From Escherichia phage SHEFM2K, in the sequence record PQ390715.1: a stretch of 64,000 nucleotides of DNA. One strand, 5' to 3'. The notes beneath the pieces are model-generated. The model saw only the letters and a program-made list of their open reading frames with translations, was not told where the DNA came from and ran no database searches. Shown here piece by piece: positions 43,416 to 46,138 of this stretch (its first letter is position 1; each line of letters begins with the position of its first letter). The translations under genes were made by a program, and so were the position numbers.

Positions 43416-43880
43416 ATGAATGAAGCGGTTGGTGCTATATTTTTATCAAAAAGTACTGGACATATGATGTTAAACTTGCGTTCTGAAAGAAGTACCTATT
43501 CTAACAACTGGGCATTTGTTGGTGGAAAGCTTGAACATAACGAAACACCACTACAAGGTCTGATGAGAGAAATTAAAGAAGAGTTGGGCAACTCAATACC
43601 TAACATTATTGATATTATACCGTTTGATGTATTTTGTACAAAAAATGGTAAATTTAAATATTATTCATTTGTTATTGTAGTTGAGAATGAATTTGTACCA
43701 ACTTTAAATCATGAAAGCTCTGGTTATGCTTGGGTTAGAATTGGTTCTTGGCCTAAACCATTACACCCTGGTGCTAAAAATACTTTACTTAACACAAACT
43801 TAATGAAAGATTTTTACTCACTATGGGAAAGTATACGTGAAGGTACACAGTTTGTCAACAGTTTACCATATAGATATTAA
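43416..43880 (+). CDS. Nudix hydrolase, 154 aa
   Basis: Nudix box GGKLEHNETPLQGLMREIKEELG fits G-x5-E-x7-R-E-U-x-E-E-x-G-U exactly; GGAGG RBS. Confidence 0.8.
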   Translation: MNEAVGAIFLSKSTGHMMLNLRSERSTYSNNWAFVGGKLEHNETPLQGLMREIKEELGNSIPNIIDIIPFDVFCTKNGKFKYYSFVIVVENEFVPTLNHESSGYAWVRIGSWPKPLHPGAKNTLLNTNLMKDFYSLWESIREGTQFVNSLPYRY

Positions 43881-43883
43881 AAC

Positions 43884-43912
43884 AAAAAGGAGCCGTGTGG
43901 CTCCTTTTTTTA
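43884..43912. terminator. Bidirectional terminator (A-run, GGAGCC-gtgt-GGCTCC, T-run) between convergent genes
   Basis: Perfect 6-bp stem with AAAAA upstream and TTTTTTTAT downstream; Nudix gene ends at 43880, the minus-strand gene ends at 43910. Confidence 0.75.
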
Positions 43913-45010
43913 TACTCCAATAATCGGAATACCTGTAATATTTAACAACACGGATGCTTGTAGTTTAACGGATTCACCAGCAGTTAGATTACTAATGCTA
44001 CCATCAACTCGAAAACCTAAATTTTTATTTGAGTTTAGAGAATTGATAACCCAATTTTCATAATCAGCTTTAGATGTTCCATTAGGATTTGGGATAGATG
44101 GATCTACACCATTAATAACAATATTTACGTCCCAGTTTGGGCGACTACTGGTAATAACATCTTTTATGGATTCTAATTGTGTAATCCTACGTGGGTCTGG
44201 CATTTGACTTGCCCCCACCGAACCAGGAACAAAAGTTCCTTGATTATCTACATAAAATTGCCCTTTTATAAAAAAGGTTTTTGAATTGTATGGAAGAGAA
44301 ACTATCTCACCAGAAGAATCATTTACTTCTCTAATCATAATTTTTAATTCATAGAAATAGTTGCTACCAAATTCAAAGACACCAGTACCATTAGTTAATG
44401 TTGTCCAGTTATTTGTATCTACTTGTGAAGTACCACCTAAGTTAAAATACGCAATTGGTTTAGTACTATTACTTTGTGTGAACTCTATATATTTTTTACC
44501 ATTATCATAGTTAATATCTAATAATGATGAATACTCTTTGTTTTCTGGTCTAGATGTTTGAATTTCACGCCATTCTTTGTTTTTCATTAACACACGAAGA
44601 GAATCACCGTTACTAGTTAATACCATACGACCCATAACACTATTTTCACCATCAGGCACTGTGTTAAAAACAGTAATCATAGGGATAGACGCCCACTCAG
44701 CTTCACTTACCATATCAGCAGGTTGTCTAGCATTATCAACTAATGATATCAATAACTCACCAGTACTACCAGTGTTTCTATACCAAAGTTGACCATTGAC
44801 GTTGCCACGTGGTGCAGATGCTGAACTGAAATTTTCAACTAAATGTAAAAAGTTTTCATTCCATGCTTGACCGTAACTTACTTTATTTCTACCAACTAAA
44901 TTTAACGGAACTGGGTTACTTCCGGGCTGGTTTGGTCCTAAAATAACATTATTTGGAATGGTAGCATAAACACTACCATTACTTCTATAAATTGTATAAT
45001 TAACACTCAT
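43910..45010 (-). CDS. Hypothetical protein (366 aa), probably virion-associated
   Basis: ORF with upstream RBS; last of a three-gene minus-strand operon embedded in the fiber module; no motif recognised. Confidence 0.35.
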   Translation of the reverse strand: MSVNYTIYRSNGSVYATIPNNVILGPNQPGSNPVPLNLVGRNKVSYGQAWNENFLHLVENFSSASAPRGNVNGQLWYRNTGSTGELLISLVDNARQPADMVSEAEWASIPMITVFNTVPDGENSVMGRMVLTSNGDSLRVLMKNKEWREIQTSRPENKEYSSLLDINYDNGKKYIEFTQSNSTKPIAYFNLGGTSQVDTNNWTTLTNGTGVFEFGSNYFYELKIMIREVNDSSGEIVSLPYNSKTFFIKGQFYVDNQGTFVPGSVGASQMPDPRRITQLESIKDVITSSRPNWDVNIVINGVDPSIPNPNGTSKADYENWVINSLNSNKNLGFRVDGSISNLTAGESVKLQASVLLNITGIPIIGV

Positions 45011-45022
45011 TATATGTCCCCA

Positions 45023-45631
45023 TTATTGTAATTGTACACGAACTGTGTATTTAATTTGTAAGACACGGTTTGCACTTTTCTCAACTGGGTGAAAAATGAT
45101 ATGGGTTAAAGGAATACCACTATCGCCATCCGTGTATAATCCCAATTCATCAAACACATAAGTTCCATCCATGCTTGTCCCTGAGCTTACACCTTGGTCG
45201 GATGGTTCACCTAACCCTAGAGTACAAATACATACAATATCAGTATAGGACTGTCCTGGTATATGTACAGTTGTAATATTATTGTATTGTGAATCAATAC
45301 CTGCCGTAATTCGTGGGTTGATTTTTTTCAAATATGTTTGTGAATACAAACCACCAAATGATGTAACACGTGGTTTTTTATAAGTAACACGACCAGTACT
45401 TAAAACTACTGTACCACCATTACCAAAACGCATCTCGCTAATAGAACCAATAGGAATACCAGTACTGTCTTGATTATATGCTAACGCATTAGCAATGGCA
45501 GTACTCATATTTTCAGGGTGAATAGCGTTAGATTTATCTAAAACGATTTTTTGATTTGATGGATCAGTAACGTCAGTAATTAGGACATGACCTTTAACAA
45601 ATAGTTTTGGTTGTTCTGTTTCTAATTTCAT
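45023..45631 (-). CDS. Hypothetical protein (202 aa)
   Basis: Tightly packed with neighbours in the same orientation; no motif recognised. Confidence 0.35.
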   Translation of the reverse strand: MKLETEQPKLFVKGHVLITDVTDPSNQKIVLDKSNAIHPENMSTAIANALAYNQDSTGIPIGSISEMRFGNGGTVVLSTGRVTYKKPRVTSFGGLYSQTYLKKINPRITAGIDSQYNNITTVHIPGQSYTDIVCICTLGLGEPSDQGVSSGTSMDGTYVFDELGLYTDGDSGIPLTHIIFHPVEKSANRVLQIKYTVRVQLQ

Positions 45632-45640
45632 TTCTAATCC

Positions 45641-46138
45641 TTAGTAGTTAATTAAAATTTGTTCTAACTTCCCAGCTAAACTTTTTTGGACATCTGATGG
45701 ATACTTACTAATATAATCACGGTCTATACCAACTTTAAGGTAAGTAAAATTACCAGTTACTGTTTCAGCAAATGTTCCGGTAGTTCCTTGTTGTCTAATT
45801 AAATCCCCACCATTTGGATTTAAAATAACCATATCAGTAAATTCAAGATAATAATTACAACTTTCAGTGAATTTAATTGGAAACCAATCATCATCAGTAG
45901 GATTACTAGCTAATGTAGCTAATACATAAATTCTACCAATAAAATTACGTAGTGTAAATGAAATAGTATGTAAACCTGTAGTACATCCATAGTAGCCACC
46001 ACTTGCGAGTGGTAACGTTTGTTCATTCCAGTGATAATCCAAGTTAGCTGGATACCAGCTATCAGATTCAGGAAAATCTTGCCATGAACCATCTTTTGTT
46101 TTTCTTCTGAAGAGAAAGTCTTTTGATCTTAATGCCAT
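45641..46138 (-). CDS. Hypothetical protein (165 aa)
   Basis: First gene of the minus-strand trio; no motif recognised. Confidence 0.35.
   Translation of the reverse strand: MALRSKDFLFRRKTKDGSWQDFPESDSWYPANLDYHWNEQTLPLASGGYYGCTTGLHTISFTLRNFIGRIYVLATLASNPTDDDWFPIKFTESCNYYLEFTDMVILNPNGGDLIRQQGTTGTFAETVTGNFTYLKVGIDRDYISKYPSDVQKSLAGKLEQILINY

Follow-up and report, generated by a model that had tools for sequence, protein, structure and literature searches.

In Staphylococcus phage 812, a gp8-like 'arm segment' protein is bound as dimers along a long 'arm scaffold', and the genes lie in the order wedge, scaffold, segment and tripod (PMC13433997). Among the RaK2-like jumbo myoviruses, virions of phAPEC6 and CBB have been analysed by mass spectrometry (MS), with the detection in phAPEC6 of gp250c (366 amino acids, aa) by 9 peptides covering 40% of the protein and of gp251c (202 aa) by 2 peptides (PMC7247149), and in CBB of CBB_231 by 12 peptides and CBB_230 by 2 (PMC5259590). 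The late promoter of CBB and GAP32 has been proposed to be the motif ATAAATA, which resembles the T4 sequence TATAAATA, and a gp55-like factor is present in RaK2-like phages, homologues of gp33 and gp45 not being reported (PMC5259590). Here we describe the corresponding locus of Escherichia phage SHEFM2K (PQ390715.1), namely a Nudix hydrolase gene and three genes on the opposite strand (the trio), at positions 43416-46138 of the 64,000-nucleotide (nt) stretch of DNA that was analysed, which is referred to throughout as the window. The four open reading frames (ORFs), already delimited in a preliminary description of the locus, were confirmed in position and strand as follows:

43416..43880, plus strand: Nudix hydrolase of 154 aa, MutT-like branch, last gene of a plus-strand operon
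43910..45010, minus strand: 366-aa virion protein, third gene of the trio
45023..45631, minus strand: 202-aa virion protein, middle gene of the trio
45641..46138, minus strand: 165-aa protein, first gene of the trio

The interpretation that we consider probable is that the trio constitutes a late operon, inverted with respect to an ancestral gene order, which encodes conserved virion proteins from the periphery of the baseplate, and that the adjacent gene encodes a MutT-like Nudix protein which is not part of the virion. The locus itself is known and ordinary. The window belongs to an Asteriusvirus, i.e. a RaK2-like jumbo myovirus, and in megablast searches the segment 43000-46600 was 100% identical in slurp01 and phAPEC6 and 97-99.9% identical in PBECO4, 121Q, G17 and others, with 35 phage records each covering at least 80% of the query. 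The locus is present in dozens of deposited genomes and the region is already annotated in several Asteriusvirus records, in the order giant protein, ClpA-like ATPase (opposite strand), structural protein, gp15-like protein, MutT/NUDIX, three opposite-strand genes and fibre genes; the Nudix gene is named as such and the two larger trio proteins are listed as virion proteins. The importance of the present analysis extends little beyond annotation. What it adds are fold-level names for three RaK2-like proteins labelled hypothetical or structural, candidate partners of the giant baseplate protein, an explanation of the strand pattern by inversion in one step, and a correction to the phAPEC6 record, where the 165-aa ORF is missing. 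Model building in cryo-electron microscopy maps of these therapeutically relevant jumbo phages could in future draw on such points.

Conservation, virion presence and gene order of the trio

Homologues of the 366-, 202- and 165-aa proteins were found by tblastn in 86, 91 and 86 phage records, respectively. None of the 35 close records lacks the trio, and it occurs in each RaK2-like genus examined, Asteriusvirus, Alcyoneusvirus and Mimasvirus among them; the hosts represented in this comparison were Escherichia, Klebsiella, Cronobacter, Pectobacterium, Erwinia, Serratia, Yersinia, Salmonella and Xanthomonas. In RaK2, K64-1, CBB and GAP32, and likewise in the Yersinia, Serratia, Erwinia, Salmonella and Xanthomonas relatives, the three genes stand next to one another and their order does not change. 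Across the RaK2-like genera, amino acid identity is 77-84% for the 202-aa protein, the most conserved of the three, 62-67% for the 366-aa protein and 58-74% for the 165-aa protein. In Yersinia phage fHe-Yen9-04, about 1.3 kb (about 141827-143119) lies between the 366-type and Nudix genes, which suggests an insertion.

This distribution bears directly on the proposal that the trio was independently acquired, i.e. that it is a moron or a horizontally transferred host-interaction module inserted in the fibre module. The opposite strand, a promoter region of its own and a strong terminator at one end would fit such a cassette. The chance that it is one is nevertheless next to negligible, since the genes stand side by side in an unchanged order in every RaK2-like genus (57-100% protein identity), since each of them also occurs in the distant jumbo phages PA5oct, Atu_ph07, Phosso and Vibrio 2.275.O, and since the GC content of the trio region (0.337) is that of its flanks (0.324-0.356). 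The promoter is moreover of the general late type, and a single inversion, described below, accounts for the orientation. The preliminary description had itself named universal conservation at this position in related phages as evidence against acquisition, and conservation at the exact position is what was found throughout the RaK2-like genera examined.

The evidence from virions bears on a second proposal, namely that the trio encodes fibre-assembly chaperones that are absent from the particle. In favour of chaperones, the proteins are small, their genes lie next to fibre genes, and the 202-aa protein is represented by only two MS peptides. However, the 366-aa protein was covered to 40% and 53% in two independent proteomes of purified virions, which also contained the 202-aa protein (PMC7247149, PMC5259590). 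The latter has been seen in three phages altogether, and PA5oct yielded a homologue of the 165-aa protein, the record of that phage giving the remark 'ESI-MS/MS' for EST35_0126, EST35_0125, EST35_0124 and EST35_0299 alike. The trio proteins do not resemble T4 gp57A, gp38 or chaperones of the Tfa type, and their predicted folds appear to match structural baseplate and fibre-anchor proteins. Chaperones are hence a highly improbable explanation, and the data favour structural products related to the fibres or baseplate, which lies within the range of examples given in the preliminary description.

To place the trio within the wider arrangement of structural genes, the following features are needed:

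28132..38133, plus strand: giant 3333-aa virion protein (phAPEC6 gp245 detected in virions)
38170..40458, minus strand: ClpA/ClpB-like double-AAA+ ATPase, one end of the inverted block (Pfam AAA_2, AAA, ClpB_D2-small)
40569..42062, plus strand: 497-aa virion structural protein, heading the 497 - gp15 - Nudix operon (CBB_234, 12 peptides)
42059..43402, plus strand: T4 gp15-like tail sheath stabiliser / tail completion protein (PF16724, E 2.3e-20; MS detection in phAPEC6 and CBB virions)
46249..47376, plus strand: 375-aa 'tail protein', abundant in virions, containing fibre repeats and a short stretch resembling collagen (14 peptides and 65.6% coverage in phAPEC6 MS)
38170..45631: block inverted from its ancestral orientation, comprising the ClpA-like, 497-aa, gp15-like, Nudix, 366-aa and 202-aa genes

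The placement of the trio inside a fibre module was only loosely right, there being tail-completion genes (gp15-like) on one side and fibre genes on the other. The giant gene comes after a gp6-like wedge gene, the 1153-aa protein encoded upstream matching the PHROG 'baseplate wedge subunit', and so occupies the position of T4 gp7 and of the phage-812 arm scaffold.

Synteny was investigated by mapping the window proteins with tblastn on seven sequences (L013, L014, L015, L004, L005, L008 and L009) and on Vibrio phage 2.275.O. In L013 and L014, which are metagenomic contigs with 36-54% identity to the window proteins, and in Vibrio phage 2.275.O, the giant, 202- and 366-type genes lie on one strand and the Nudix, gp15 and 497-type genes converge on them, followed by the ClpA-like gene, the 165-type gene on the opposite strand and the fibre genes. 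In the more distant PA5oct and Atu_ph07, a homologue of the giant gene is followed on the same strand by a 202-type gene and then by genes for proteins with a gp10-type N-terminus. A 202-type gene stands directly downstream of the gp7-type scaffold gene in all five of these sequences (PA5oct, Atu_ph07, L013, L014 and Vibrio phage 2.275.O). The order giant-202-366 in distant phages identifies it as the ancestral one, and it parallels gp6-gp7-gp8-gp9/10 of T4 and gp116-119 of phage 812.

In the window the order is instead giant, ClpA-like (minus), 497, gp15, Nudix (plus), 366, 202 (minus), 165 (minus) and fibres (plus), and inverting the single block from the 202-aa gene to the ClpA-like gene in the ancestral arrangement gives this order exactly. 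One inversion thus accounts for the two strand switches seen in this region and for the broken adjacency of the 202-aa and giant genes; the strand switch, formerly read as a sign of insertion, is explained by this ancient rearrangement. The inversion of [202, 366, Nudix, gp15, 497, ClpA] would have taken place in the ancestor of the RaK2-like clade, separating the 202-366 pair from the giant gene and bringing it behind a 165-aa gene that was already on the minus strand. From gene order and motifs, the three-gene operon would then be a secondary fusion of the 202-366 pair with a 165-aa gene that had its own divergent late promoter. Contig L015, at an intermediate distance (46% identity), already has the derived order.

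Two observations on these comparisons may be recorded here. In Atu_ph07, a GIY-YIG/NUMOD3 homing endonuclease gene (L008 5279-5992) lies between the giant and 202-type genes; gp178 of the same phage, considered as a homologue of the 165-aa protein, was rejected as it is a GIY-YIG homing endonuclease. The ClpA/ClpB-like ATPase gene (38170-40458, minus) is embedded among tail and baseplate genes, and in PA5oct it lies directly 5' of the homologue of the 165-aa gene.

Predicted folds and the probable place of the three proteins in the virion

Searches of the trio against PDB sequences (phmmer) yielded chance matches only, and there were no matches in Pfam and NCBIfam. The assignments below draw on predicted structures, profile comparisons and the gene order described above.

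The predicted model of the 202-aa protein appears to have a fold like that of T4 gp8 and the phage-812 baseplate protein, its best structural match being a domain of an archaeal-virus hub protein. The identification of the phage-812 chain 9euf_b as the arm segment protein is tentative. The position of its gene in the outgroups, directly 3' of the giant gene at the gp7 position, corresponds to that of gp8 relative to gp7 in T4 and of gp118 relative to gp117 in phage 812; gp105 of Listeria phage A511 belongs to the same set of comparators. Like the gp8-type arm proteins it is a virion protein; unlike T4 gp8, to which it has no detectable sequence similarity, it is short (202 vs 334 aa). We infer that it may act as a gp8-like 'arm segment' protein that binds the giant protein encoded at 28132-38133.

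For the 366-aa protein, the model suggests a gp10-type N-terminal anchor (approximately residues 3-82) together with a small beta domain and, at the C-terminus, a jelly-roll or lectin-like beta-sandwich. The first ~80 residues share homology with the N-terminal part of PA5oct EST35_0125 (hhalign 95.6%, E 1.2e-8), a protein that carries the Pfam domain Gp10_C (PF21939, E 9.8e-24), and they also match the PA5oct protein encoded next to EST35_0125 (hhalign 97.3%). Residues 22-57 form the most conserved stretch (77%) and yet have the lowest predicted local distance difference test (pLDDT) values, as would be expected of a segment that folds only when docked. The known systems with which the protein was compared are the T4 gp10 and gp9 trimers and the N-terminal anchors of branched tailspikes and fibres (Kp9 gp42, Acinetobacter tailspikes). 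An NENF motif aligns with residues 27-30 of T4 gp10, an agreement that is not significant alone. The C-terminal half differs from T4 gp10 in being a jelly-roll or lectin-like sandwich rather than gp10 domains, and also from a typical receptor-binding tip in being conserved across hosts (48-54%). In Foldseek searches of the model against the PDB, matches were mostly weak ones to lectin and capsid jelly-rolls with poor TM-scores, and only the AM24 tailspike was credible; overall, the model seems to resemble tail-fibre and tailspike anchors and gp9. The protein probably forms a trimer, with its gp10-type N-terminal anchor docked on the baseplate and a jelly-roll or lectin-like domain at the distal end. 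Vibrio phage 2.275.O has two full-length paralogues of it, NVP2275O_422 at the ancestral position after the 202-type gene and NVP2275O_479 among queuosine-biosynthesis genes.

The 165-aa protein belongs to a large family, with 595 representative relatives in a profile search of 1.8 billion representative proteins. About two thirds of these are free-standing proteins of 110-170 aa, while in about one third the domain is N-terminal in proteins of 203-1649 aa. In 8 of the 10 long members scanned, collagen triple-helix repeats follow directly after the domain, and most of these 10 also match tail-fibre PHROGs. This N-terminal position in collagen-repeat fibres marks the domain as a fibre-anchoring module, which is here a separate protein and might serve as an adaptor for the neighbouring fibres. 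The protein is annotated as a 'structural protein' in 121Q and K64-1, and the PA5oct homologue is marked as MS-detected. The 375-aa gene adjoins the 165-aa gene in all relatives. The idea that the 165-aa protein is the split-off N-terminus of the 375-aa collagen-containing protein was rejected as a homology and is kept as a loose analogy, the 375-aa family having its own conserved N-terminus and, by BLASTP and hidden Markov model searches, no similarity to the C-terminal parts of the fused 165-aa homologues. In phAPEC6 (MK817115), which is identical in sequence here, the 165-aa ORF is unannotated and a 57-aa ORF in another frame, gp252c (45919-46092, minus), is annotated instead.

The main alternative to the baseplate-arm assignment, for some of the trio proteins, is provided by the hairs of these phages. 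According to this alternative, some or all of the three proteins would be located in the neck or collar, or in the 'hairy' whisker rings on the sheath and capsid of phAPEC6 and CBB, in particular the 165-aa protein as the anchor of collagen-like hairs and the 366-aa protein as a short whisker. The genes do adjoin that for the tail completion protein gp15 and that for the abundant, collagen-containing 375-aa virion protein; relatives have fusions of the 165-aa domain with collagen-like fibres; and the hair genes are unassigned in both published studies (PMC7247149, PMC5259590). We nonetheless consider the neck or hairs fairly unlikely as the site of these proteins. In the outgroups, the 202- and 366-type genes are located directly 3' of the gp6-like and giant wedge genes and adjoin the gene for a true Gp10_C protein, the predicted fold of the 202-aa protein appears to match those of the baseplate proteins gp8 and gp7, and GAP32, which is said to lack hairs, has all three genes.

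Several points weigh against the assignment of the trio to the periphery of the baseplate and against the companion assignments. The location is deduced from fold, homology of one domain and gene order. Comparison by hhalign of the trio profiles with single sequences of 28 T4 structural proteins gave no significant match (best probability 4.3%), and the 366-aa protein has no Gp10_C domain according to Pfam. The 202-aa protein was represented by only 2 peptides in each of the phAPEC6 and CBB proteomes, and a low or moderate copy number fits this better than many copies per arm. The 165-aa protein is missing from the CBB MS table, and the published phAPEC6 proteomics could not identify it because of the unannotated ORF. 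The late promoters are motif predictions, and the Nudix protein scores far below every NCBIfam equivalog cut-off.

Predicted late transcription units

The signals that delimit the transcription units around the trio are as follows:

43884..43909, both strands: hairpin of a bidirectional intrinsic terminator, where the Nudix and 366-aa genes converge
46171..46177, minus strand: ATAAATA late-promoter motif, 33 nt upstream of the first ATG of the trio, conserved in RaK2 and CBB
46206..46212, plus strand: divergent ATAAATA late-promoter motif, 37 nt upstream of ATG 46249 (fibre genes)
40531..40537, plus strand: candidate GTAAATA, a one-mismatch variant of the late promoter read from the sequence, 32 nt upstream of ATG 40569

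The hairpin at 43884-43909 has a symmetric stem of 11 bp, flanked by an A-run and, at its opposite end, a T-run, so that a T-run is present on both strands. Its folding energies on the two strands are -16.2 and -16.7 kcal/mol (z -4.7 and -4.5). It is an annotated terminator in phage G17 and is conserved in RaK2; it is absent in CBB, where the Nudix and 366-aa genes are 3 nt apart. Only this half of the proposed bracketing of the trio by bidirectional terminators held, since the upstream boundary (46139-46248, 110 nt) contains the divergent ATAAATA motifs and folds no better than shuffled sequence (z -0.8 and -0.1). A second terminator at this end was therefore rejected. The next terminator-like hairpins are far outside the trio, at 38137-38163 and 50453-50481, and an Rfam scan of 38000-51000 gave no matches.

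ATAAATA occurs 18 times in the window against 35 expected. With one exception these copies precede the nearest gene start and are on the coding strand, and 8 of the 18 are placed 31-37 nt 5' of a start codon, including both copies in 46139-46248. That divergent pair recurs at the same spacing in RaK2 and CBB. Examples elsewhere in the window include 10962(-)/11019(+), 12908, 17558, 23580 and 56997, and together with 46171(-)/46206(+) there are two divergent pairs. The copies would thus mark late transcription units across the window. In their core, in the spacing of 31-37 nt before structural genes and in their strand specificity, they agree with the T4 late promoters (TATAAATA) and with the CBB/GAP32 motif. 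The RaK2-like phages differ from the T4 system in having the gp55-like factor without reported homologues of gp33 and gp45 (PMC5259590).

Spacings of 9-12 nt between the trio genes, a ribosome-binding site for each of them and the failure to find a strong internal terminator together indicate a single late operon and lend support to the earlier view of the trio as a separate transcription unit. Transcription would start late from the predicted promoter at 46171-46177 and end at the hairpin at 43884-43909. As to independent regulation, the trio does have a promoter motif of its own, but this is of the same late type as those before other structural genes.

The Nudix hydrolase and the neighbouring fibre genes

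The protein encoded at 43416-43880 matches Pfam NUDIX over residues 4-122 (E 2.6e-15; 57 bits against a cut-off of 21.1). Its Nudix box, G37-x5-E43-x7-R51-E52-I53-x-E55-E56-x-G58-N59, agrees with the consensus at 22 of 23 positions, the final hydrophobic position being Asn, and it is invariant in the orthologues of RaK2, K64-1 and CBB. The description of the box as a textbook one was therefore borne out. The closest solved relatives are BdRppH (E 4e-7, residues 8-59 only), MutT proteins, NudI, NudG and the catalytic domains of Dcp2. With MutT, NudG and BdRppH the protein shares the canonical box and the upstream W-x-F-x-G-G-K pattern; its gene differs from those of this type, and from T4 NudE, in being located in a late structural operon. 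Scores fell short of the equivalogs for MutT 8-oxo-dGTP diphosphatase (NF008044, 36.8 against 148 bits; TIGR00586, 35.2 against 97.9) and for RppH (NF001936 and related, 27.9 against 118). Orthology with T4 NudE was rejected, the 24% identity over 103 residues amounting to generic superfamily similarity.

Identity of the Nudix protein is 71-80% across the RaK2-like genera, 62% to Vibrio phage 2.275.O and 54% to PA5oct. The gene lies directly 3' of gp15 in the RaK2-like phages, L013, L014, Vibrio phage 2.275.O and PA5oct, and by this distribution it is a core gene of the phage supergroup. In PA5oct the adjacency to gp15 is kept although the other blocks are dispersed. Contig L015 is without a Nudix gene at this position, and the distant homologues in phiRSL1 and BcepSauron are found among nucleotide-metabolism genes. 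The protein was not detected by MS in virions of phAPEC6 (gp249; PMC7247149) or CBB (PMC5259590), and the PA5oct record is without an MS note.

Taken at sequence level, the protein appears to be a conserved MutT-like pyrophosphohydrolase that would be made late, co-transcribed with gp15, and not packaged in the virion. Its substrate is most likely of the nucleoside-triphosphate type, i.e. a nucleotide or an RNA 5' end. A link to tail completion or to the virion, whether as an assembly factor or as an enzyme that is packaged or ejected, and not as a housekeeping enzyme of the nucleotide pool, has in its favour the persistent position directly after gp15, even in PA5oct, and a degree of conservation (54-80% identity) like that of structural genes. 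We judge such a link very unlikely, because the protein escaped detection in the phAPEC6 and CBB particles, because L015 has the same gene order without the Nudix gene, because the distant homologues keep company with nucleotide-metabolism genes, and because adjacency can be inherited without a functional link. No explanation was found for the deep linkage of gp15 and Nudix. A wider combination, in which the giant, 202-, 366- and 165-aa proteins form an oversized phage-812-like baseplate arm carrying many fibres and the Nudix protein is tied to tail completion or the virion, is quite unlikely as a whole.

Both the 497-aa and the 375-aa proteins contain repeated 'D-G-x-x-Y/F-F ... W' motifs resembling fibre repeats. 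The 375-aa protein has in addition a short collagen-like G-x-y run and is among the best-covered of the phAPEC6 virion proteins. Downstream, a 713-aa pectate-lyase-like (colanic-acid-degrading) protein (47391-49532) and a 298-aa virion protein (49549-50445) have about 110 N-terminal residues in common (E 2e-19, ~50% identity across the first 60 residues), which, from the alignment, has the appearance of a docking module shared by exchangeable distal parts.

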